From positions 41,045-105,044 of the IMG/VR virus record IMGVR_UViG_3300020468_000003: DNA of 64,000 bases; one strand, given 5' to 3'. This document shows, in pieces, positions 11,115 to 30,113 of this stretch. The notes under the pieces are model-generated. The model ran no database searches. It was given only the letters and a program-made list of their open reading frames with translations, and was not told the DNA's origin. Both the position numbers and the translations under genes were made by a program. Source of the DNA: a virus. How positions within the stretch are numbered: the first letter of the stretch is position 1; every line of letters begins with the position of its first letter.

Positions 11115-11189
11115 GGATGGATCTCCTTTTGTTTATACTACTATTATAAACACTATTCCCCCAGAAAAGGGGGTTTAGTGTGCACTTTG

Positions 11190-11372
11190 TTAACTGTCTA
11201 CTTGAGAGCATGCATAATCCCAAGGTGCGGGTTCGCATATTTTTTCAATCAGTGTGTCAAAGTCATTTTCTGATTCTGCGTCAACCCATCCATTCTCTAT
11301 AAAAAATTGTCCCATTTTTACGAGGACTGATTCCTCTGCTTCAGTCATTGTCAATTCACGTTCCCATTTCAT
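11190..11372 (-). CDS. Early hypothetical protein
   Basis: 60-aa acidic ORF; stop lies within the palindrome. Confidence 0.7.
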   Translation of the reverse strand: MKWERELTMTEAEESVLVKMGQFFIENGWVDAESENDFDTLIEKICEPAPWDYACSQVDS

Positions 11373-11533
11373 GATTCAATCTCCAAAGAATTAATAAAGT
11401 TTGTACAATAACGATTAAATCGTGTAAGAGATTCAAACGGTATTTGGTCGTCTTCTTCACCGACGTAGTAAAAAAGTTTGTTAATGTCGCTCTGAAAAGT
11501 CTCCAGAGCGATTTCGTTTTTAGTGTAACTCAT
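11369..11533 (-). CDS. Early hypothetical protein (54 aa)
   Basis: Hand translation MSYTKNEIALETFQSDINKLFYYVGEEDDQIPFESLTRFNRYCTNFINSLEIES; ATGA overlaps on both sides. Confidence 0.7.
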   Translation of the reverse strand: MSYTKNEIALETFQSDINKLFYYVGEEDDQIPFESLTRFNRYCTNFINSLEIES

Positions 11534-11748
11534 ACCAGTGAATCCAGTCTGGACTGTGGAATTTCTTTTCCATCTCTAGCACCCCACTTGTTGATATGGC
11601 GTGAAGTTGTTACTGACCAAAACTGCTCTGTTTTTACGAATCCTTCACCGAAGATGTAAGCAGCAACAGGTGTGCGGTATGAAAACAAAATTCTTGCTTC
11701 TTTTGTTTCAACCTCGGTCATGTTTGATGCGATTGGTGTGAGTTGCAT
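11530..11748 (-). CDS. Conserved small phage early protein
   Basis: LFSY.TPVAA...S.TTSRHINKW motif; AGGAG RBS. Confidence 0.8.
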   Translation of the reverse strand: MQLTPIASNMTEVETKEARILFSYRTPVAAYIFGEGFVKTEQFWSVTTSRHINKWGARDGKEIPQSRLDSLV

Positions 11749-11787
11749 TGATGCTCCTTTTTGTGTATATGTTTATTATAATAGAAA

Positions 11788-11807
11788 ACCCCCAGTGAAT
11801 GGGGGTT
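11788..11807 (-). terminator. Intrinsic terminator embedded in a promoter module (representative copy)
   Basis: Minus strand AACCCCCA-TTCAC-TGGGGGTT followed by a T run. Confidence 0.7.
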
Positions 11808-11829
11808 GAGTGGACACTTATTTAACTGT

Positions 11830-11988
11830 CTACTTGAGACCTGCTAATAATTCATCATTCTTTCTTCTGAGTTCTTTTAACTCCGCACGATTAAAACGAC
11901 GATAATCAATTTCGGTTGCAATTGCCATGCCTACCGTATATAATGCATAGCAGCCGCCAACTAATATTAAAAGTTCAATTCCTGTCAT
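11830..11988 (-). CDS. Small membrane-anchored early protein (start MTGIELL)
   Basis: N-terminal hydrophobic helix; GGAGG RBS before ATG 11988. Confidence 0.65.
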   Translation of the reverse strand: MTGIELLILVGGCYALYTVGMAIATEIDYRRFNRAELKELRRKNDELLAGLK

Positions 11989-12056
11989 TTTTGGGTTCCT
12001 CCTTGGGAAGTTGTTGTTGTTTGTAATTTTTAAGAAGTTCTGCGTAAACTTCTGGA

Positions 12057-12341
12057 TCAAGCGGTTGCATAAGACCTCCCGAATCTTTCGGCATAATATC
12101 CGATATTTACATAGTCCCTTTTAAGGGTGCATATCTGGGTAATGTCTGCCAGTGCTAAAAGATGGTCGGGTGTGTAAACTGATGGATCGTCCCATTCAGA
12201 AACCGCAACTGCATTTTCAACGTCCATAGTTGTACGTCCGAGTTCGTCCGTAACTGCGGGACAACTCATAAGAAGTCCATCTTCAGCAATCCAGAATCCC
12301 ATTCCGAAAGAGTGTGAGTAATGAATTTCAGGTTTTGGCAT
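12057..12341 (-). CDS. Early hypothetical protein (start MPKPE)
   Basis: GGAGG RBS before ATG 12341, downstream of the -10 box. Confidence 0.7.
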   Translation of the reverse strand: MPKPEIHYSHSFGMGFWIAEDGLLMSCPAVTDELGRTTMDVENAVAVSEWDDPSVYTPDHLLALADITQICTLKRDYVNIGYYAERFGRSYATA

Positions 12342-12406
12342 TTGCCTCCGTGTGTATGTCTTAATTATAGTACCCATTAACAACGAATGGGAAAGTAGTG
12401 GACACT

Positions 12407-13333
12407 TTAACCAACTGGCACAAAGCGACCACTATTAAAATTTGCGTATGAGAAAATATGTCTATAAACTAATTTGTGCATACCGAACTTATTCGTCATT
12501 ACGAATCCTTCGCCTATGTGCTTGTCATAACCTAAGTATGCTTGAACTGGATCGCTGTGAGTCAATCTGCTCATAACGTCCGCTTTAGTTTCTTGAACTA
12601 ACTTCCAGTAGTTTATCAACCTTCCATGAATCCCGTAGTTAACGGGATCCACTTCTTTCCCTTCCCTATAGTCTTTATTTATTTGTTTCTTTAACTCTTT
12701 AGCGGTTTTATTATCTACGAACTGGATCCCCTTCGCCATATGTCTAATGAAATCAATAGACGGTTTTAAGTTAGATATTGGATCGTTTTCTCTCTCCTTG
12801 ACTTCTGCTCTGATGAATAAACAGTCGTCCATCTTTTCCCAGTTGTAATAATATGGAAAAGATTTCATAGGGTGTGCTTCAGCATTTGCAAGATTGTCTG
12901 TGCACTGTGTGGTGATGTATTGCGTGTGAGGTGCAATAATGATCTTTTGATCTACCACGTCAGGGAATTTATATGTTAAGGTATTAGGTTTGTATTCATC
13001 AGAACCACCAAAACCAATAAAGTCCCCCTGAAAAACCATATAACCTAGATGGTGTGGTATGTGGTCGAAACACGCATGAAGAATTTTTGCAACTTCTCCT
13101 GTGTGATTTGCGTCAATATCCTTGTGTGAGTAATTGATCTTGATTTTGATCTTGTTAAAGACGCTTTTAGTACCCACGAAAAATCTGTGAGTCTTTGGAT
13201 GATTACCCCATACAACTGCGGGTGCACCATCATATTTTAATGAGATGTTCCCACCACCAGTAAACCAATCTAGCACGGATAAATCCCCTGTTAGGATTGT
13301 GTCTTCTGGATGTTCTAGGTGTGTGTTTTTCAT
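12407..13333 (-). CDS. Conserved cyanophage early protein with ligase-like KxDG motif (DUF6267-like)
   Basis: HLEHPED, KYDGAPAVVWG, FQGDF and EGFV motifs resembling covalent nucleotidyltransferase motifs. Confidence 0.7.
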   Translation of the reverse strand: MKNTHLEHPEDTILTGDLSVLDWFTGGGNISLKYDGAPAVVWGNHPKTHRFFVGTKSVFNKIKIKINYSHKDIDANHTGEVAKILHACFDHIPHHLGYMVFQGDFIGFGGSDEYKPNTLTYKFPDVVDQKIIIAPHTQYITTQCTDNLANAEAHPMKSFPYYYNWEKMDDCLFIRAEVKERENDPISNLKPSIDFIRHMAKGIQFVDNKTAKELKKQINKDYREGKEVDPVNYGIHGRLINYWKLVQETKADVMSRLTHSDPVQAYLGYDKHIGEGFVMTNKFGMHKLVYRHIFSYANFNSGRFVPVG

Positions 13334-13387
13334 ACCTTTATTATAACGAATAAAAGACCCTCTGTGTAGAGGGTGTGTGACACTTAA

Positions 13388-13570
13388 TTAACTGTCATAA
13401 TCCGAGCCATCATATTCGCCTTCATAGTTATCATCGTAAATACGAACGGCTAACTCCGCATCTTGGCTTAATTTAATCCCTGCTCTATCAAGTGCTTCCC
13501 AAATCTTGTTAGAAATGTGGCTGTGTTCGTCTTCGGGGATATGTTGAAAAAGGTTTAAGTAGTTTTCCAT
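13388..13570 (-). CDS. Early hypothetical protein
   Basis: 60-aa ORF coupled to upstream gene. Confidence 0.7.
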   Translation of the reverse strand: MENYLNLFQHIPEDEHSHISNKIWEALDRAGIKLSQDAELAVRIYDDNYEGEYDGSDYDS

Positions 13571-13845
13571 TAGAATTGCTCCCTCCTATCGTGGATAAAT
13601 TCTTGCAATTCTTCATACGCACCTTCTTGATCTAATACCATAGGTGCAAGAAATTCATACAAGTTTTCATCATAATCATCAATCTCATCTCTGATTTCAT
13701 CCTCCGTGCATCTGTTCAATTCGGCAAGATAAGTTGTACGAATCCAGTCTGCCATTTGTTCGGTGTTCATATCGTTGATATAAAATTCAACGAATTCTTC
13801 CCTTAAGTCTTGGATTTGCTCTGCTGAAAATAATGATGTAATCAT
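13570..13845 (-). CDS. Acidic early protein, paralog family A
   Basis: LREEFVEFYINDMNTEQMADWI similar to 13842..14087 and 15148..15390. Confidence 0.7.
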   Translation of the reverse strand: MITSLFSAEQIQDLREEFVEFYINDMNTEQMADWIRTTYLAELNRCTEDEIRDEIDDYDENLYEFLAPMVLDQEGAYEELQEFIHDRREQF

Positions 13846-14087
13846 AGTTCTAAAAGTTTTAAATTGAATGGTTTTAATTTATCATCGAAGAAATCTTCTC
13901 CTCCGAAATCTATCATTTCCCCGAATGCACCCTCTTGCCCATCAACAATTTTAATATTTTCAAGGTTGTGGTGTAGATTGTCTCTTACATATTCTCTGAG
14001 TTGATTAACTTCCATATCTTCTACGAAGTCGTTAACCCAACTACGAACCAACTCATCATATTTGGACTGTACCAGTTCTAACTTCAT
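13842..14087 (-). CDS. Acidic early protein, paralog family A
   Basis: LVRSWVNDFVEDMEVNQLREYV. Confidence 0.7.
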   Translation of the reverse strand: MKLELVQSKYDELVRSWVNDFVEDMEVNQLREYVRDNLHHNLENIKIVDGQEGAFGEMIDFGGEDFFDDKLKPFNLKLLEL

Positions 14088-14302
14088 GCTACCAACCCCT
14101 CTAGAACTAATTGTTGCTGTGGAATTTCTTCTTCTTTGATTTCTACAGTTTCATAATCGAATTCTTCCCAATCAAAATCATAGTAATCCCAACCATTTTC
14201 TGCTTCCTCTTTGGCTTCTTCAAGACTACTTGCCTTAACTGTAAAGTACTCCATCTTAGTACATTTACGAGTTACATAAAACTCATGTTCATAAGGTTTC
14301 AT
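14084..14302 (-). CDS. Early hypothetical protein
   Basis: F.VKASSLEEAKE.A motif common in small phage proteins. Confidence 0.7.
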   Translation of the reverse strand: MKPYEHEFYVTRKCTKMEYFTVKASSLEEAKEEAENGWDYYDFDWEEFDYETVEIKEEEIPQQQLVLEGLVA

Positions 14303-14445
14303 TAGAACTGCCTCCAGTGGTAAGAATTTTCTCCGTTAATCTGTTTGATTAACGCATCTGCCTTTGCCTGATCTTCTTTTAGGAAGTCGTCTGCAAATTT
14401 GATCAAGTCTAATAGTCCTTGAACATCTTTGTTTTTGTTGTCCAT
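14302..14445 (-). CDS. Early hypothetical protein (47 aa)
   Basis: Hand translation MDNKNKDVQGLLDLIKFADDFLKEDQAKADALIKQINGENSYHWRQF; TAATG coupling to next gene. Confidence 0.7.
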   Translation of the reverse strand: MDNKNKDVQGLLDLIKFADDFLKEDQAKADALIKQINGENSYHWRQF

Positions 14446-14514
14446 GTAGAACCCCTTGTGTATGTCTTAATTATAGTACCCATTAAATACGAATGGGAAA
14501 AAAGTGGACAGTTG

Positions 14515-14955
14515 TTAAACTGTCCTAGTTGTCTTTGGGATTTCTACGGGTTTCGTGTAGAATCCTGTAATCTTCCATGTCTCGTCGTCATGTGTGATGT
14601 CTGTTTCATACGCATGCCATTTACCTTTCAAGAAGATGTAAAGGAATTCGGAACCGCAGTCAATTTGTGCCAGTTCATCAAGATTTTTTGATAGGACTGG
14701 TCCCTCATCTTTCCCACCATAATATTCAACGTGACCTTCGCAATCCTCGAACTCTTCGGTTTCCTTGTTATACTTGCTTGTAGAAAAGCACGAAGACATA
14801 TTGCCACCGTCGATGAGTTCGCGAACTGTCTCATCTGTGTTGTAGTGCTCTTCAAGAGTTACACCCAACCATTCAGGATATCCATCCCAGTGATGATAAA
14901 CAGAAAGAATGGAATCATCTTGTAATACATAACCAATTCGTGAACGTGTTGACAT
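14515..14955 (-). CDS. Conserved phage hypothetical protein
   Basis: MSTRSRIG...SVYHHWDGYPEWLG..L..HY family signature. Confidence 0.8.
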   Translation of the reverse strand: MSTRSRIGYVLQDDSILSVYHHWDGYPEWLGVTLEEHYNTDETVRELIDGGNMSSCFSTSKYNKETEEFEDCEGHVEYYGGKDEGPVLSKNLDELAQIDCGSEFLYIFLKGKWHAYETDITHDDETWKITGFYTKPVEIPKTTRTV

Positions 14956-14976
14956 AATGTTTTTAAAAAATGGATT

Positions 14977-15095
14977 GTAGAGGTACTTGCACCAGAGTAA
15001 TTAACTACTGGGGTCGATCTCGACATTTCAAGAGTGGGACTAAGATGCATCTGCCCTGTTAAGGTGTCTCCCGCTTCACTATCTCTGCCCTCTAC
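14977..15095 (-). ncRNA. Candidate structured 5' leader RNA (copy 1)
   Basis: Closing stem GTAGAGG/CCTCTAC begins at the predicted TSS; internal hairpins; shares motifs with 29972-30049. Confidence 0.5.
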
Positions 15096-15147
15096 TCTTA
15101 TATAATAAACGATTTTGAGTCGTTTTCAATAAAAAGTGGACACTTAT

Positions 15148-15390
15148 TTAACTGTCCACTCTTGATTTTTTGAAGTCGCATTTCATGTAGTCTTGGACTT
15201 CATCAATAACTTCACCGAAGTAATCACCCCAATAATCCTTCGCATCATTTAGAAATTCATCGTCAGTTTGACCATCAACATATTTGTCCATGTCGTTGTG
15301 AACATACTCAACTAAATCTTTAGTGTCCATGTTATCAACATATCTCTCAACAAAGAAAGATTTGAGCTCATTAATTAAGGCTTTGTCCAT
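15148..15390 (-). CDS. Acidic early protein, paralog family A (start MDKAL)
   Basis: LKSFFVERYVDNMDTKDLVEYV; GGAGG RBS. Confidence 0.75.
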   Translation of the reverse strand: MDKALINELKSFFVERYVDNMDTKDLVEYVHNDMDKYVDGQTDDEFLNDAKDYWGDYFGEVIDEVQDYMKCDFKKSRVDS

Positions 15391-15539
15391 TATCCCATTT
15401 CCTCCAATATTTGCTGTGCACGAACTCCTGCAACATACTGAGCATCTTCGCAATGTGGATCTAATCCTGCTTCTTCAATCTGTAATAGTAGATCTTCAAA
15501 GATTCCTTCTAGTAGTTCTTCGTTTGCTAGGCAACTCAT
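15390..15539 (-). CDS. Early hypothetical protein (start MSCLANEE)
   Basis: AGGAG RBS before ATG 15539, downstream of the -10 box. Confidence 0.7.
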   Translation of the reverse strand: MSCLANEELLEGIFEDLLLQIEEAGLDPHCEDAQYVAGVRAQQILEEMG

Positions 15540-15621
15540 TTTGATCTCCTTTGTTTGTATATTATTATTATAAGTCCCCACTCTTACGAATGGGGATTTA
15601 GTGGACACTTTTTAAACTGTC

Positions 15622-16086
15622 CTATAAGTACCCTGCAGATTCACATCCTGGTTCATCATAGAACCACTGGATCGAAACTTTTTTATATTGTCGTTTCAGT
15701 TCAGAGGCAACGTCTTCGGGTGGAGCCCATGCTGTGTCGAAATGGATCTGGAAATAATCCTCTTCGTCGTCTCCCCATTCGACTGCATCCTTACGAATGT
15801 CCCATTTAGTTCCCCAGTTATGAACATTCCAGTCGTACCATCTGTCATCATTTTTTCCATCTGGGAAGTAATAGGATTCATAGATGAGTTTGCCATCCTT
15901 ATTAAATTCCTGCCTTAGAGATGGTAATTCACCTTTATCATTCGGCATTTTTTTCCAGTCTGGTGGTGGAATGATCTTGGCGAATGGATTGTCTTGAGAG
16001 AAAATTTCTCTGATCTCATTGATCTCTTGAACACTTTCTTCATCCCATCCAGATACTGTTACTCGGTTACTGCACCAATTTGGCAT
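15622..16086 (-). CDS. DUF1281/YubB ferredoxin-like domain protein
   Basis: MPNWCSN, WYDWNVHNWGTKWD, FDTAWAPP and EPG motifs. Confidence 0.85.
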   Translation of the reverse strand: MPNWCSNRVTVSGWDEESVQEINEIREIFSQDNPFAKIIPPPDWKKMPNDKGELPSLRQEFNKDGKLIYESYYFPDGKNDDRWYDWNVHNWGTKWDIRKDAVEWGDDEEDYFQIHFDTAWAPPEDVASELKRQYKKVSIQWFYDEPGCESAGYL

Positions 16087-16316
16087 TAGTTTAACCTCCA
16101 GTCAATCTTAAGGTATTCTGGATCAGCATAGTTCATCAACTGTTCTGGTTCCATGTCGAATATGAATTCTTCCATGAAATATTGAACTGAGAAGTTCCCT
16201 AATTCTTCAGCACAACGAAAGACCATTCCGATCTGTTCATTGTTTAGACCTAGAACATCAATACAGTAAGAGATGTCCTTTTCAAGATCTGAAATTCTTT
16301 TGGAAGATTTTTTCAT
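16086..16316 (-). CDS. Early hypothetical protein
   Basis: 76-aa ORF behind a promoter module. Confidence 0.7.
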   Translation of the reverse strand: MKKSSKRISDLEKDISYCIDVLGLNNEQIGMVFRCAEELGNFSVQYFMEEFIFDMEPEQLMNYADPEYLKIDWRLN

Positions 16317-16396
16317 AAAAACCCTGTTTGTGTATGTTCTTATTATAAAGGCAAAAGGGGGTCATGTAACCCCCTAGTGGACACTTTTTTAACTGT

Positions 16397-16900
16397 CTAC
16401 CTTAAGTAAAGATATCCTCCTGCCCAATCTACGAAGTTTGGATCTAATAATTTTTGTAGATCCTTTGGTTCGCAAAATGAGAATCTAACGTGCTTTGTAT
16501 GCGGTGCCTTCCATGATGCGGGTTTGTATACGTTACCTAGGATCGATGGATCCTTTCCTACGAATGCATGAACGCTACCGTCGCGATATTCATTCCTATC
16601 TTGAAAAGTGTCGAACTCTTCTTGAATGATTTTGTAATACTTCCTGCCTACCTCATAACGAAATCTCATTAGATTCGCAGTCCCGTCTTTCATCGCGTCT
16701 AACTGTTGTTTCGCATAACTTGAAAGATCTTCGCGCTCTAACTCTAGATTTCTTGTTAAGGACCTCTTGTGGTAGATGCGATAATTCTCAGTAATTGCTC
16801 TACAATAATCTTTTATGTAAGATAAAAGAAACGTTTGATCCGTTTGCTTTACTGATTTTCCAATGATAAAATCATTTTTGGATCCAATTACTTGTTGCAT
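16397..16900 (-). CDS. Conserved cyanophage early protein (start MQQVIG)
   Basis: GRKYYKI...SVHAFV...G.VYKPASWKAP..HVRF...DWAGGYLY; start moved because the longer ORF reads through a promoter module. Confidence 0.8.
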   Translation of the reverse strand: MQQVIGSKNDFIIGKSVKQTDQTFLLSYIKDYCRAITENYRIYHKRSLTRNLELEREDLSSYAKQQLDAMKDGTANLMRFRYEVGRKYYKIIQEEFDTFQDRNEYRDGSVHAFVGKDPSILGNVYKPASWKAPHTKHVRFSFCEPKDLQKLLDPNFVDWAGGYLYLR

Positions 16901-25076: not shown

Positions 25077-25935
25077 CGATTGTATCTAATTCAGATAACT
25101 TTGGATACATTCCCTTAAATGTATCTGCGTTTTGTTTCTGTTTTTTCATATCATCATCCATCTCTATTCTACCTGTGTTTTCATTAAATTGCAATAGCAT
25201 TTTTCTACCTGCCTTTCTAGCAGTTTCTCTAAAGTTTGGCGATATACCAGTTGTATCATTTGAAAATGTGGTTACATGATCACTTAACCATCCAGTACAA
25301 ACATACTTACTACCTTTAGTGACAGTTTCTCCTCTATGATAGAAATACCATGAAGCAGGGAAACAAATCAACTTTCCAGTTTTTGGTGCTACATTGAGTA
25401 TATCATTACTATTTCCACCAACTCTAAATTGTGTATGCCCACCATCAAAATCATCATTGAGATACCACATATATGTGAATAATCTTCTTGCTTGCAAAAC
25501 AGTTCCAGAATCTCTATATCCTCTTAATGGAAATACTATCGTATCTAAAATTGGAGAGACATCATCATCAGCATGCCAATCATAACTTTCTCCAACATTA
25601 GTTCTTTGTACTTGATATCCAGAATCAACCATGTCCCCTTTTGATTGAACAACATCACCTAATTTTTCTTTTATGTAAGTTAAATATTTTTTTACATGTG
25701 GGGAAAGTACTTCAAAAAAGTATGCATCATATTCTTCCCATTCTGGCCATTGAGATATCCACAGATCAGTTGATTTTTTGATACTTGTTCCATCAGCGTG
25801 TCCCTCAGTATCAGATGCTGTGATTCCCGCACTTTTACGATGATCATATTCAAATTTTTCAATGATCTCTTTGCATTTATCAGCAGGTATGACATCATCA
25901 TACTGCACTATCATATCGGCAAAATTAGTTATCAT
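25045..25935 (-). CDS. 2OG-Fe(II) oxygenase, prolyl-4-hydroxylase-like
   Basis: WHAD, MWYLNDDFDGGHTQF, GKLICFP.W...HRG..V..GSKYV.TGW. Confidence 0.9.
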   Translation of the reverse strand: MITNFADMIVQYDDVIPADKCKEIIEKFEYDHRKSAGITASDTEGHADGTSIKKSTDLWISQWPEWEEYDAYFFEVLSPHVKKYLTYIKEKLGDVVQSKGDMVDSGYQVQRTNVGESYDWHADDDVSPILDTIVFPLRGYRDSGTVLQARRLFTYMWYLNDDFDGGHTQFRVGGNSNDILNVAPKTGKLICFPASWYFYHRGETVTKGSKYVCTGWLSDHVTTFSNDTTGISPNFRETARKAGRKMLLQFNENTGRIEMDDDMKKQKQNADTFKGMYPKLSELDTIVDESTQDKGV

Positions 25936-26434
25936 GTTGTTTTAAATTAAATGCTAAAATAATTCTTTTATCCATAACAGGTGGACTAAAATGATATATC
26001 TCTGGGTCCCAGATTAATAAATCTCCAACCTTAACTTTAGATGTTGTTGTGTTACATTGATGCAACGGATCTTGAAAATAAGTAGATTGTCCCTCGGTTA
26101 AAAATAAACAACCAGAACCACTTATTTTTGTTCCTGTATGATTATGTATAGGATGAAATCCACCAGGTTCATACACTTGAACCCAAGAATTGTCAAATGC
26201 TTCTGCAGGAGCTATAGGTTCTAAAACTTTGTAAATCCACGGAACTATATGTGCTTCATTCTTTGTACCATAAGTTGTCCAAAGTCTTCCATGATCAACA
26301 TATTTTCCATACTTCTTACACCATTCTTCAACCTTATCAAGAAATCCCTCTGGTATGGGAATATTATCTTTAATAACAATTGAAGGTGGAAAAAGTTGTT
26401 GATGCTCTGGTCCTTTTTTCTTTTCTTCACTCAT
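25925..26434 (-). CDS. 2OG-Fe(II) oxygenase
   Basis: SWVQVY....HPIHNH, GDLLIW....YH, RIILAFN. Confidence 0.8.
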   Translation of the reverse strand: MSEEKKKGPEHQQLFPPSIVIKDNIPIPEGFLDKVEEWCKKYGKYVDHGRLWTTYGTKNEAHIVPWIYKVLEPIAPAEAFDNSWVQVYEPGGFHPIHNHTGTKISGSGCLFLTEGQSTYFQDPLHQCNTTTSKVKVGDLLIWDPEIYHFSPPVMDKRIILAFNLKQHDN

Positions 26435-26831
26435 AAAATGCCTCTAATCCAACTGGTTCTCCAAAACTATAATCATAAGTTAATGCATCATGACAAACAT
26501 AATGCGGATGATCAGGTTTTACACCTAATCTTTTACACAATTCAAGATGATTATCCTCCATGAGTTCTACTGCATACAACATATTGTTTAGTATGTGTTC
26601 CTCATCATGATACTGCAGCAATTTAGTTTTAAGAGTAACTAAAAAGTTACCACTACCTGCTGAATTATCTAGGAAAGTAGAATTAGGGTTCTTTTTTACA
26701 TCATCTGGTATATCATTTATCATTCTAGCACAAACATCCATAGGTGTAAACACTTCGCTAGTAGCATTTATCCTATCATCTGATCTTTCAATTACAGATC
26801 CTACACTCTTATTGTGGTCGTTTCTTTTCAT
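26427..26831 (-). CDS. Stand-alone SAM-binding half of an N6-adenine DNA methyltransferase (motifs X, I, II, III only)
   Basis: EVFTP, FLDNSAGSGNFL, LYAVELMEDN, VCHDAL; ends before any NPPY. Confidence 0.85.
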   Translation of the reverse strand: MKRNDHNKSVGSVIERSDDRINATSEVFTPMDVCARMINDIPDDVKKNPNSTFLDNSAGSGNFLVTLKTKLLQYHDEEHILNNMLYAVELMEDNHLELCKRLGVKPDHPHYVCHDALTYDYSFGEPVGLEAFYE

Positions 26832-29800
26832 AAAATATCAGGAATAGTTCTGAATAATTCTTTTGAATTAGTATTAACTATCCTATTCTTTAGAACCATT
26901 TGATGTACTTCATCAGATCTTAAATAATCTGCAAGTTTATTACTCTCCTCCTCAGAAGATGTTTTTATGATAACTGTAGATCCACTAATAGAATGATCGT
27001 AAGGTTTGATACGGATCTGTCCAAAACCTTGTCCACCGTATTTACTATTCATTACAACTCCATGTTGATTAATACAACAAGTATGCTGAGACTTATCAAC
27101 ATTAGTAACTTGCATCTCTCCATTTTTACCACCCATTGTAGTTATCATAGGATACTCTCCCTCAATCAATTGATTTAAGTTCAAATCTCCACGTTGATAG
27201 CGATGTCCCATATTGTTAGAAACATCTGAAACAAAATCTGGATTAGTAAATCTAATACAAGTATCATCAGTAAGTTGAATATTCTTTACTGTACCATCAA
27301 GATAAGTTAATTTTGTTAGTCCAGTGTATCCACGTTTCCATGTACAAATACATGTCTCTGTCATTGATATAGATGGAAATGTATCAGGAGATAATGCTTC
27401 AATAGAAACAATACCTGGTGTTGAAAACAAAGTTCTTCTAAACTTTGATGTGGATTTAGCAAAGTGTTTTGATCGAATTACTTCTGATACATAATCAGAT
27501 CTTTTCATTGCACTTAGATAAAAATGTGTATCTAAAGTTTTTGCACATCCACCTGTGGTTGCACCTGTTACTGTAGATGTATCTGTATATGGTGGATTAC
27601 CAACTGTAGCACTAAACTGCATTTTGTAATTACTAAGGTTGTCGGTTACATTAATTTTAGCATTAATCTGCTTTATTGCATAGCGATGAGTAGGATCGTT
27701 TTCCCACACCACTATGTCATCGGGTTCCCAAGATTTATTCTCTATTGCATATAAAGAATGAAGTCCAGAGGGATCTCCATGTATATACAACTTTTCAGTT
27801 GTATCCTTTTTTAAAGGAATCATCCTATCAAGAATATCTAATGAAAGTGTCTTTTGATTCTTTCTTGTTGTTGCAAGTTTCTGTAAGGTTCCACATTCAT
27901 CTTTAGACATAGAATGTTCAATATCTATGATTCCTTGATTAATTCTATTGATCCAAGATTTAGGTATAATCTTTTGTTCTAAACAAGCTTTGATAATACC
28001 AGTAGTGTCTCCTGTGTCATGTTCATAATATTTTGAACTAAGAATACTATCTACACTTTTAGGTGTGGATTTATTCTTTATCATATGGAAGATAACTAAT
28101 CCTATTCTCTCCATGTATGCTTGAATAGTTTCTGTTTTCTGTGCTATCTCAGACTTATCAAAATGTGTAGAAAATTTAGATGAACTGGTAAGTTTCTTAT
28201 TACTGTTTGCGTTAGCATTGTTTTCATTTACTGTAAAAGAACTCCATGAAGATAACTTTGCACTCTTCTGAAAATTATCAAATTCAATGTCTCCTAACTT
28301 AAGAAAATCTAATTGAGATACAATACCTGATATCAAAGATACTGCACTGTCTACATCATTAGATAGAATTTCGTTTAGACGTTCTGGTGTTACTTCTTCA
28401 AAATCAGAGAAGTATTCAAAGATAGGAACTAAATCAAGAAGTTCATATTCAGATTCTGTTAACTCATGATTCAAATCACATGCAGTAAAATACATGTTTC
28501 TGATTGTAGTAAAACAACGTTCTGGGCAAAAATCAATTACATCCCAAAAGTTTCTCTTTGTTGATCCACCACGGAAAGCAAACTGTGTCCATTGTTCTCT
28601 TGATGATCCTTCTGCACAATTCATAACAGTATCAATACCCTCTGCAGTTAGACCAAGAACATTTGCAGTTTTAGTTAAGATAACTGTAGATGTGTTAGTA
28701 TCAATATGTGATCTGATTGTCTCAGAATTTTCTCTAGTATCTGAAGTTACAACTAATGGTTTAAATCTTGTTGATTTAAAATAATCTACAAGTGCATGAC
28801 ATGATGCCATAGAAGGCAAAGTTATCATTACATGTCTACAGTTCTTTAGTATTCTTTTGTTATACTTTATTCCATCTTGAGTAAACACTTTACTCATAAA
28901 TTCATCAACTAATATTGGTTCAGCAAAATCATCCTCATCTTTGTTTACTCTAAAAATATTACCCATTGCATCAGGATCATCGCCATATAAGTCTTGATAT
29001 TTACTGGACTCATACTTTGCAAGAATCAATCTCATCTGTGGAGAATTTACATACTCCTTTATACCTTGCAATTTATACAATTGCTCCTCAAAATATGAAT
29101 ATACAAATCTAAATTTAGGAAAATCTTCTAAGATTTTATGTGCAGTTCCTGAGACATACAATACTTTTGTATCGAAGTGATCTCTAAGACTTATCCATTG
29201 ATCTCCCTCATATCCAAGATGTGCTTCATCGAATACTATTAGATCAATATTACAAGGTAGATTCTTATATCTGTTAGGAGCTTGAATAGTAGAATATAGA
29301 ACTATTTGTTTTTCAGTTCCCATCCAATACTCTATCTCATTCTTAAACTGATCTACTTCACCATCACGAATATCAATGAATATAATATTATCAAAGTTTT
29401 TAAACTGTTGGGAATCATCTCTCCATGATTGTTTAGGAGAATTTCTATATGAAACAACTAAGGATACCTTAACATTACTCTCTACAATAGAGGAAAGAAC
29501 CATTGTAGATTTACCTGCACGACACTTAGCAAATAACAAATACTCTTTCCATTCATCCCATGTTGAAGTTATCTCAGATACAAATTCTTTTTGGTGTTTG
29601 CGAAGTTTACGATATTCTTTTTCCTCTACATTATTTGTAAAAAACTCTTCTTCAATAAGATCCTTTACAACATCAATACTTAAACCATGACCATCTTCAA
29701 TTTTATAAGTCTCTCTACCAGTTTGTGTAATACCACGTTGTTTTTTTAACCAACTATGTATCTCATGATCTCTACCATCAAAATCTGTCCACCATCCTCT

Positions 29801-29947
29801 CTTTATTCTTGCACTACCAACTGCTGCTAAATCTTGTTTTGACTTACCATAGTCTCCACCTTTATGTCTATCTTCATATGTGTGTATGGTTTCTCCTAAA
29901 CCGAAGGCAGACGGATTACCTTTAAACCCGTCAAGGTAAATGTTCAT
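26828..29947 (-). CDS. Multidomain GIY-YIG/T5orf172-like + SF2 helicase + N6-MTase catalytic/TRD protein
   Basis: AKCRAGKST (Walker A), FDEAH, SGTA, QFAFRGG; VGNPPY; N-terminal IY...GET..T.E.R...DHEIH..LK...GRE pattern. Confidence 0.8.
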   Translation of the reverse strand: MNIYLDGFKGNPSAFGLGETIHTYEDRHKGGDYGKSKQDLAAVGSARIKRGWWTDFDGRDHEIHSWLKKQRGITQTGRETYKIEDGHGLSIDVVKDLIEEEFFTNNVEEKEYRKLRKHQKEFVSEITSTWDEWKEYLLFAKCRAGKSTMVLSSIVESNVKVSLVVSYRNSPKQSWRDDSQQFKNFDNIIFIDIRDGEVDQFKNEIEYWMGTEKQIVLYSTIQAPNRYKNLPCNIDLIVFDEAHLGYEGDQWISLRDHFDTKVLYVSGTAHKILEDFPKFRFVYSYFEEQLYKLQGIKEYVNSPQMRLILAKYESSKYQDLYGDDPDAMGNIFRVNKDEDDFAEPILVDEFMSKVFTQDGIKYNKRILKNCRHVMITLPSMASCHALVDYFKSTRFKPLVVTSDTRENSETIRSHIDTNTSTVILTKTANVLGLTAEGIDTVMNCAEGSSREQWTQFAFRGGSTKRNFWDVIDFCPERCFTTIRNMYFTACDLNHELTESEYELLDLVPIFEYFSDFEEVTPERLNEILSNDVDSAVSLISGIVSQLDFLKLGDIEFDNFQKSAKLSSWSSFTVNENNANANSNKKLTSSSKFSTHFDKSEIAQKTETIQAYMERIGLVIFHMIKNKSTPKSVDSILSSKYYEHDTGDTTGIIKACLEQKIIPKSWINRINQGIIDIEHSMSKDECGTLQKLATTRKNQKTLSLDILDRMIPLKKDTTEKLYIHGDPSGLHSLYAIENKSWEPDDIVVWENDPTHRYAIKQINAKINVTDNLSNYKMQFSATVGNPPYTDTSTVTGATTGGCAKTLDTHFYLSAMKRSDYVSEVIRSKHFAKSTSKFRRTLFSTPGIVSIEALSPDTFPSISMTETCICTWKRGYTGLTKLTYLDGTVKNIQLTDDTCIRFTNPDFVSDVSNNMGHRYQRGDLNLNQLIEGEYPMITTMGGKNGEMQVTNVDKSQHTCCINQHGVVMNSKYGGQGFGQIRIKPYDHSISGSTVIIKTSSEEESNKLADYLRSDEVHQMVLKNRIVNTNSKELFRTIPDIL

Positions 29948-29971
29948 TTTCTCCGAATAAATTGGGTGCGA

Positions 29972-30049
29972 GAAACAAAAACTCGGACTTACAGGACGTA
30001 ATTTCTCTGCTGAACAAAGACAACCATAGATCCTTGCCTGTTTTGTTTC
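29972..30049 (-). ncRNA. Candidate structured 5' leader RNA (copy 2)
   Basis: Closing stem GAAACAAAA/TTTTGTTTC begins just after the predicted TSS; shares motifs with 14977-15095. Confidence 0.5.
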
Positions 30050-30058
30050 CCTGTATTA

Positions 30059-30113
30059 ATTATAGCATGAAAAAACCCCCTGTAAAGGGGGTTGTGACAG
30101 TTTCTAAACTGTT
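30059..30113 (-). promoter_or_regulatory. Early-promoter module driving the nuclease-helicase-MTase operon
   Basis: ATTATA-N28-TGTGACAGTTTCTAAACTGT with CCCCC/GGGGG terminator hairpin. Confidence 0.85.

Follow-up and report, generated by a model that had tools for sequence, protein, structure and literature searches.

An orphan structured leader RNA carried by marine T4-like cyanophages in front of unrelated genes

The 64-kb stretch of viral DNA analysed here (the window) carries a sharply defined structured leader RNA, an orphan for which we found no earlier description. At its centre lies a 52-nt core that, among the databases we searched, appears to be specific to marine T4-like cyanophages. 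An initial annotation made from the letters alone had tied the element to the gene behind it, which encodes a restriction-modification-like protein of 1039 residues. From the comparison of related loci, that gene is instead cargo behind a shared promoter-leader cassette. The most likely role of the element, which we put forward tentatively, would be that of a generic cis-acting leader module, recognized by a shared factor, that stabilizes or processes early messages.

In this region of the window every gene lies on the minus strand, as does the 78-nt element itself (29972-30049), and the order of features is read from 30093 downward (Table 1). Transcription would start near 30051-30052. The element begins 1-3 nt past the predicted start of the TG-TATAAT early promoter, and it opens with GGG at 30049-30051. 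Its closing stem, GAAACAAAA/UUUUGUUUC, is present as the initial annotation had claimed, and reaches 11-12 bp once the flanking G's and the UC are counted. The placement of the element between the early promoter and the ribosome binding site of the 1039-aa gene was also correct. The GGAG of this gene stands about 18 nt beyond the 3' end of the element, and a GGAG-containing spacer of 18 nt separates the GCACCC tail from the ATG (29947). The word UUUGUUUCUC(U/G)CACC is seen again in further leader contexts, for example in P-SSM2. When the whole leader is folded, the GGAG and the ATG are both free and the element sequesters neither; no terminator lies 3' of the core in the window. The whole 105-kb record holds one copy of the motif.

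Table 1. Positions of the leader RNA, its parts and the neighbouring features in the 64-kb window
Feature	Position	Strand	Remarks
GC-rich terminator hairpin AACCCCC-UUUACA-GGGGGUU + U run	30074-30093	-	8 pairs, 5 G-C
Sigma70-type early promoter (predicted)	30059-30086	-	11/12 matches, TG present; -35 TTTACA 30081-30086, 16-nt spacer, extended -10 TGcTATAAT 30059-30067
Closing stem, 5' half GGGAAACAAAAC	30040-30051	-	extreme 5' end of the predicted transcript
Conserved core GCAAGGAUCUAUGGUUGU-P3-AAAUUACGUCCUGUAAGUC, 52 nt	29986-30037	-	alignment, covariation, covariance model
P1	30037-30038 with 29985-29986	-	
P2	30030-30034 with 29993-29997	-	
Invariant strand CUAUGGUUG	30021-30029	-	
P3	30015-30020 with 30004-30009	-	
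Loop UUCAG	30010-30014	-	
Invariant strand AAUUAC	29998-30003	-	
Strand GUAAGU	29987-29992	-	
Closing stem, 3' half GUUUUUGUUUCUC	29970-29982	-	predicted fold and comparison with other leaders
Conserved tail GCACCC	29964-29969	-	just past the 3' half of the closing stem
Ribosome binding site GGAG (29951-29954) and ATG (29945-29947) of the 1039-aa gene	29945-29954	-	
1039-aa gene, ResIII helicase and Eco57I-like methylase domains	26828-29947	-	phrog_22930, phrog_3689
Cargo operon, three genes	25925-29947	-	1039-aa gene, 134-aa N6_Mtase fragment, 169-aa 2OG-Fe(II) oxygenase
CP12-domain gene, 88 aa	30366-30632	-	just upstream of the cassette
phrog_1987 / PSSM2_070-family gene	14515-14955	-	42% identical to PSSM2_070, E = 1e-29; motif HHWDGYPEWLG
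Copy 1, 119-nt RNA leader of the window's phrog_1987 gene	14977-15095	-	

The core is an irregular, unbranched rod. It runs through P1, a loop CA/GUAAGU, P2, an invariant CUAUGGUUG/AAUUAC segment and P3 to a UUCAG loop. The real support for this fold comes from conservation and covariation and not from single-sequence folding, in which the element does modestly better than shuffled versions (z = -2.2; 3 of 200 shuffles). Our alignment holds 81 instances, 80 of them distinct. Over the 80 distinct instances the proposed partners pair in 93.5% of cases overall, in 99.8% for P2 and in 100% for P3, and nine pairs have changed on both sides. The observed covariation score was reached by none of 500 shuffles, and sliding the partner columns by one to three positions, as a control, halved the pairing. 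Indeed, the first seven sequences were already compensatory (CUCUG/CAGAG versus CUCAA/UUGAG; AGGAU/GUCCU versus AGGGU/GCCCU), and RNAalifold independently returned the same structure together with an extra invariant helix, UGGUU/AAUUA. The AGGAU/GUCCU pairing singled out by the initial annotation is real: it is helix P2, and relatives carry compensatory changes in it.

The fold belongs to the transcript (sense) strand, because G-U cells exceed A-C cells in the core pairs by 114 to 2. The motif is always intergenic, with an open reading frame downstream on the same strand. About 25 loop nucleotides of the core show no variation at all. The loop words CUAUGGUUGU and AAAUUACG occur in every true instance, and since a further scan, built on different stretches of the motif, found the same loci with both words kept, this invariance is not an artefact of the first pattern. 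Moreover, a covariance model run on 100 loci gave 99 matches, all of at least 69 bits and none weaker, which marks a sharp family boundary; in the 64-kb window it has one match, at 86 bits. Within the 13 contexts whose leader is identical to that of the window (GGGAAACAAAAC-core-GUUUUUGUUUCUCGCACC) the closing stem is invariant, so its support comes from two other variants. In locus L009 the stem is rebuilt from different letters (GCGAGAACAAA/UUUGUUCUCGC), and in locus L045 it is extended on both sides.

Two other readings of the core letters were rejected. A 12-codon open reading frame, MVVFVQQRNYVL, runs from an AUG at 30027 to a UAA (29989-30027, minus strand) and is kept in most instances. 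Among its 23 distinct versions, codons differ non-synonymously 43 times and synonymously 16 times, and there are 3 premature stops as well as 2 read-throughs; this pattern makes the frame incidental to the RNA fold, with substitutions driven by pairing, and does not fit a leader peptide. A CsrA-type GGA site or a Dam GATC site in AAGGAUC fares no better, because these letters vary with compensation (GGGU, GAAU, AGAU) as a helix does and a motif does not.

Where does the core occur? In a megablast search with the surrounding 2 kb, the only stretch that aligned with phage records was 55 nt long and lay within the element; the flanks found no match. This match is 98% identical to an unannotated gap of Prochlorococcus phage P-SSM2 and similar to single-cell marine virus assemblies. 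Among phages with unalignable flanks the core remains 87-98% identical. Carriers are at least 119 IMG/VR contigs (at least 128 distinct contexts, the counts of the pattern scan being lower bounds), P-SSM2, P-SSM5 and single-cell viral genomes. A host origin was considered and rejected: a two-block pattern run over 596 Gb of prokaryote genomes (GTDB) gave 61 matches scattered over unrelated taxa, not one of which has the complete core or lies in a cyanobacterium. The core is also found in contigs of four marine metatranscriptome studies, where its summed depth peak is due solely to its being shared by many phages; as assembled contigs, these data carry no readable expression level, strand, starts or ends, and may include DNA carry-over.

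No known RNA family accounts for the motif in the searches we made. Rfam 15, which includes the manA, wcaG, PhotoRC and glnA families and the twister-sister, hairpin, pistol and hatchet ribozymes, gave 0 matches in the 64-kb window at gathering thresholds. Over the core, a search at E <= 10 returned nothing but a 13.8-bit chance match to snoR111; at E <= 0.01 there were 0 matches in eight related loci and none in the P-SSM2 region. Nor did we find an account of the motif in the literature on cyanophages and phage RNA.

The genes behind the core differ from phage to phage. Among the roughly 120 motif-bearing loci listed, L078 alone has the 1039-aa gene, and at 99.9% identity L078 is this very phage. 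The open reading frames after the core in the loci listed fall into 30 different clusters, begin 12 to over 600 nt from it and share no common pathway. The commonest is the phrog_1987 / PSSM2_070 protein of about 145 aa (36 of 127 instances), and the identical leader stands before other genes in 12 other contexts. In the window, the 134-aa N6_Mtase fragment that follows overlaps the stop of the 1039-aa gene. The initial annotation had proposed post-transcriptional control of a potentially toxic nuclease, or a small RNA partner of the enzyme. A dedicated regulator or partner of this kind would suit the position of the element directly upstream of the gene in this phage, but the distribution contradicts it, and we find it scarcely credible. 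Gene-specific control and a specific link to the protein are likewise not supported. The broader part of the proposal stands: a structured 5' leader RNA of an early transcript is under strong selection, and a post-transcriptional role is reasonable.

The surroundings of the core are more constant. The CP12 gene just upstream of the cassette, 61-88% identical, is common to about 40 motif-bearing loci; the position in the early region is thus conserved and the cargo is not, a stable anchor beside a variable early region. The gene upstream of the core is often an N6/N4 DNA methylase. Two further families were noted after the core: one (7 loci; L004:1639-2043) has a weak, sub-threshold match to the ArdA antirestriction protein (E = 0.005), and another (14 loci) is DUF7717.

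The initial annotation had also described the element as the second copy of a structured leader; copy 1 lies at 14977-15095. We detected no homology between the two by covariance model, word statistics or pattern scan. The covariance model of the motif did not detect copy 1 in the window, and a scan whose pattern came from the 3' part of copy 1 gave 22 matches, all of them chance. The words AAUUAC and UG(Y)AAGU are indeed in both sequences, but sharing is at chance level (4 common hexamers against 2.0 expected, P = 0.18). A 20-mer match at 11690-11709 (3 mismatches) lies inside a 72-aa open reading frame and is a chance match, distinct from copy 1. What the two leaders have in common is a gene family. 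The phrog_1987 family is led by copy 1 in the window and by the 52-nt core in other phages, where it is the family most often found behind the core; the two are therefore alternative leaders of one gene family, not paralogues. In front of this family, copy 1 is interchangeable with the core-bearing leader.

In the contexts of the window type, it is the promoter module that the leader accompanies. The same promoter-plus-leader cassette stands before at least eight different start regions (13 contexts), and the -10 box lies 6-9 nt ahead of GGGAAAC in 13 of 13. Across them the 86-nt leader is invariant; the promoter flank, the spacer and the gene all vary. The cassette upstream of the element fits the description of the promoter-early stem-loop (PeSL) cassettes of T4-type phages (Arbiol et al. 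2010, PMC2839356), which would explain unrelated genes behind one leader. As in PeSLs, a GC-rich stem-loop terminator lies directly upstream of a strong sigma70-like early promoter and is fused to it (30059-30093); this hairpin (30074-30093) ends the unit on the cp12 side, and its loop holds the -35 hexamer. As in PeSLs, too, the early region is hyperplastic, and genes are exchanged behind a conserved patch of about 100 bp that itself does not move. The combination that defines a PeSL, namely a sigma70-like early promoter with a GC-rich stem-loop terminator, intergenic and in a hyperplastic region, is found at 30059-30093 and not in the transcribed element. In a PeSL the stem-loop serves as a terminator, placed at the promoter or ahead of it, and is not known to carry with it a transcribed domain that is conserved. 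Here, conservation falls on the leader, which is transcribed, has covarying helices and keeps about 25 loop nucleotides invariant. The PeSL paper dealt with coliphage relatives and makes no mention of cyanophages (PMC2839356). Elsewhere in the window (11127-16401), the early genes are partitioned in a PeSL-like manner by repeated cassettes (families D4, D5 and D8), each made up of a palindrome, a GC hairpin and a promoter.

T4-type phages shuffle modules through PeSLs (PMC2839356), and the core could be mainly a selfish or recombination-prone patch, PeSL- or MITE-like, whose spread reflects mobility and not phage function. Its 87-98% identity between phages with unalignable flanks is in keeping with this, as are its presence or absence within the same leader stem, its nesting in other modules and the PeSL-like cassette that adjoins it in a hyperplastic early region. 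However, double compensatory changes in three helices, a strand-specific G-U excess and invariant loops over at least 128 contexts are the marks of purifying selection on an RNA fold. Terminal inverted repeats and target duplications are absent. We consider a merely mobile patch quite unlikely.

The core is itself a module. In other phages it caps varied outer stems, and with 10.0 flank-flank pairs around it, against 6.8 with shuffled flanks, it usually tops a longer helix. It lies inside longer arrays, rather than adjoining the promoter, in about 70% of contexts. Some copies sit inside a scaffold of about 250-330 nt whose ends pair as GAGGGA/UCCCUC, tandem cores 122 nt apart are found in L038 and L076, and in L051 a different hairpin replaces the core. 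A natural core-less leader exists as well: in one contig of a marine RNA library (run X1, depth 12.8), over window positions 29980-30042, the halves of the closing stem are joined by the 12 nt UGCUUACGAGUA (RNA strand), which stand in for the 61-nt core-bearing stretch.

The larger scaffold begins just past the -10 box, reads GAGGGAUAUGUGGUUCUACUGCC ... GGGGUUCAGGUGUAAGCGAUUCCC ... GGUAAAUUUGGGC ... GGUGAAACC ... GCCCCACUCCCUCAC and has no match in Rfam. It is seen at L011:9340-9560, L038 (minus strand, two cores), L051, L003 and L006, with the core inside it or after it. A second recurrent module, CGAGGAGAUGGAUGUGCCUCUCGGUUCGCAACCGAAGAAAGAACUAACAUCC, is often found just 3' of the core (L001:2930-2990, minus strand, which is P-SSM2; L003, L004, L018 and L106).

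Could the core cleave itself as a small ribozyme, or be a defined processing site of another kind, and so trim early transcripts and leave ends that resist 5'-end-dependent decay? A length of 52 nt, covarying helices and about 25 invariant internal-loop nucleotides are typical small-ribozyme features, and several copies per genome, some in tandem, without a fixed gene partner would suit this reading. Twister-sister and minimal TS-like ribozymes offer a likeness in the letters: they too are small and occur in many copies without a gene partner, the GCAAG internal-loop strand of the core lies between two helices, and together with the A-U and G-C pairs that extend P2 it matches the twister-sister L1 strand G5-G9 exactly (PMC5660989, PMC11620745). 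Similarly, the GU..AAGUC word of the core, GUAAGUC, is close to the twister-sister SL4 loop GUGCAAGUC (PMC5660989, PMC11620745).

However, the likeness stops there. GCAAG (30033-30037) faces the strand CUGUAAGUC, which lacks GCUCAU and with it the twister-sister cleavage strand GCUC^AU, and there is no counterpart of the extruded G59, because C pairs with G in P2. The SL4 hairpin, whose loop sits on a three- or four-way junction and docks onto L1, is absent as well: the consensus is an unbranched rod with a UUCAG loop, and the Rfam twister-sister model does not match. The hairpin ribozyme is rejected too. Two internal loops split by a continuous 5-bp helix, with no hinge, make docking in the manner of that ribozyme impossible, and the Rfam Hairpin model finds no match. 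The core words AUUAC and A-GUCC bear what we take to be a resemblance to sTRSV. No Rfam ribozyme model matches at E <= 10, and the contig data show no common break inside the core, contigs being blind to RNA ends. On balance, a ribozyme or processing site is unlikely.

The element may also be compared with the orphan RNAs of cyanophages. The manA (RF01745), wcaG (RF01761), PhotoRC-II and glnA/Downstream-peptide RNAs were found by comparative analysis alone, and their function is at most partly known (Weinberg et al. 2010, PMC2864571; PMC9602691). Like our element, they are conserved, folded 5' UTR RNAs of marine cyanophage genes. However, none of their models match the window or the eight related loci, and they are named for recurrent gene partners, whereas the core is gene-agnostic, nestable and swappable.

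Some of these RNAs (glnA, manA and wcaG) are riboswitch-like (PMC2864571, PMC9602691), and an aptamer that senses a metabolite or ion during infection would account for the invariant internal loops between covarying helices and for the tandem copies in L038 and L076. However, the core has no conserved expression platform, its distance to the start codon ranging from 12 to over 600 nt, which makes a classical riboswitch unlikely. In the window no terminator follows the core and the ribosome binding site is unsequestered; elsewhere the core is a peripheral domain, nested in larger RNAs and replaceable by unrelated hairpins, and the 30 unrelated downstream clusters have no pathway in common. The core does not fit a generic riboswitch, and we regard an aptamer of any kind as decidedly improbable.

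An RNA directly after early promoters, in a region full of terminator-promoter cassettes, might instead act in trans or on the transcription machinery. It would then serve as a sponge or decoy that draws off a host nuclease or RNA-binding defence, or else resemble a put element in letting RNA polymerase pass the many early terminators. Multiple and tandem copies would be suitable for a sponge, and the neighbours have the look of an anti-restriction island, with N6/N4 DNA methylases in 24 loci, the weak ArdA-like match and the helicase-methylase in the window. However, no terminator delimits a separate small RNA in the window, and Rfam holds no known antitermination or decoy RNA to which the core is alike. 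We place this alternative on the unlikely side.

In the reading that we tentatively prefer, a generic leader module acting in cis, the element would form the hairpin at the 5' end of an early mRNA, with a portable 52-nt RNA domain added at its tip. The core would act as RNA, in cis, whatever gene stands behind it. Its invariant loop nucleotides most likely shape a fixed three-dimensional surface, which a factor present in every such infection may recognize: a host RNase, another RNA-handling protein or a core phage protein. The closing stem would seal the 5' end and, together with this surface, would shield or mark early transcripts, so that what is controlled would be stability or processing, instead of the element serving as a gene-specific switch. 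The promoter-leader cassette would be the conserved patch, with early genes exchanged behind the same leader, and the restriction-like gene may have arrived in this way.

A closing stem at the 5' end of a message slows 5'-end-dependent decay, that is, attack by RNase E/J. Stabilizer hairpins at the 5' end of bacterial and phage mRNAs are familiar from the ompA leader and the 5' stabilizer of phage SP82. Our element shares with them a stem that starts 1-3 nt from the predicted 5' end of the message. They differ from it in being simple hairpins or ribosome-binding stretches, which are not known to have a conserved internal-loop architecture or to be shuffled among genes. Host RNase E is induced in cyanophage infection, and most Prochlorococcus are without Hfq (PMC2518516). 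Because a plain hairpin would suffice to protect a 5' end, the stabilizer idea alone leaves the roughly 25 invariant loop nucleotides unexplained, and for this reason we favour the stabilizing module with no more than tentative confidence.

In a bolder reading, the core might be its own new class of functional RNA fold, either a small self-cleaving ribozyme that distantly echoes twister-sister L1 or a compact nuclease-blocking, xrRNA-like knot, used by cyanophages as an interchangeable brick in a toolkit for building the leaders of early messages. We think this unlikely.

T4-like cyanophages kill a large share of the Prochlorococcus and Synechococcus of the ocean. To our knowledge, almost nothing is known of how these phages handle their early messages. 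P-SSM2, which carries the motif, grows on Prochlorococcus NATL1A and NATL2A and thus offers a culturable system. An apparently cyanophage-only motif, found in more than 100 contexts and both nestable and swappable, points to an unrecognized RNA-level layer of early gene control in these phages, or else to a new catalytic or nuclease-resistant fold.
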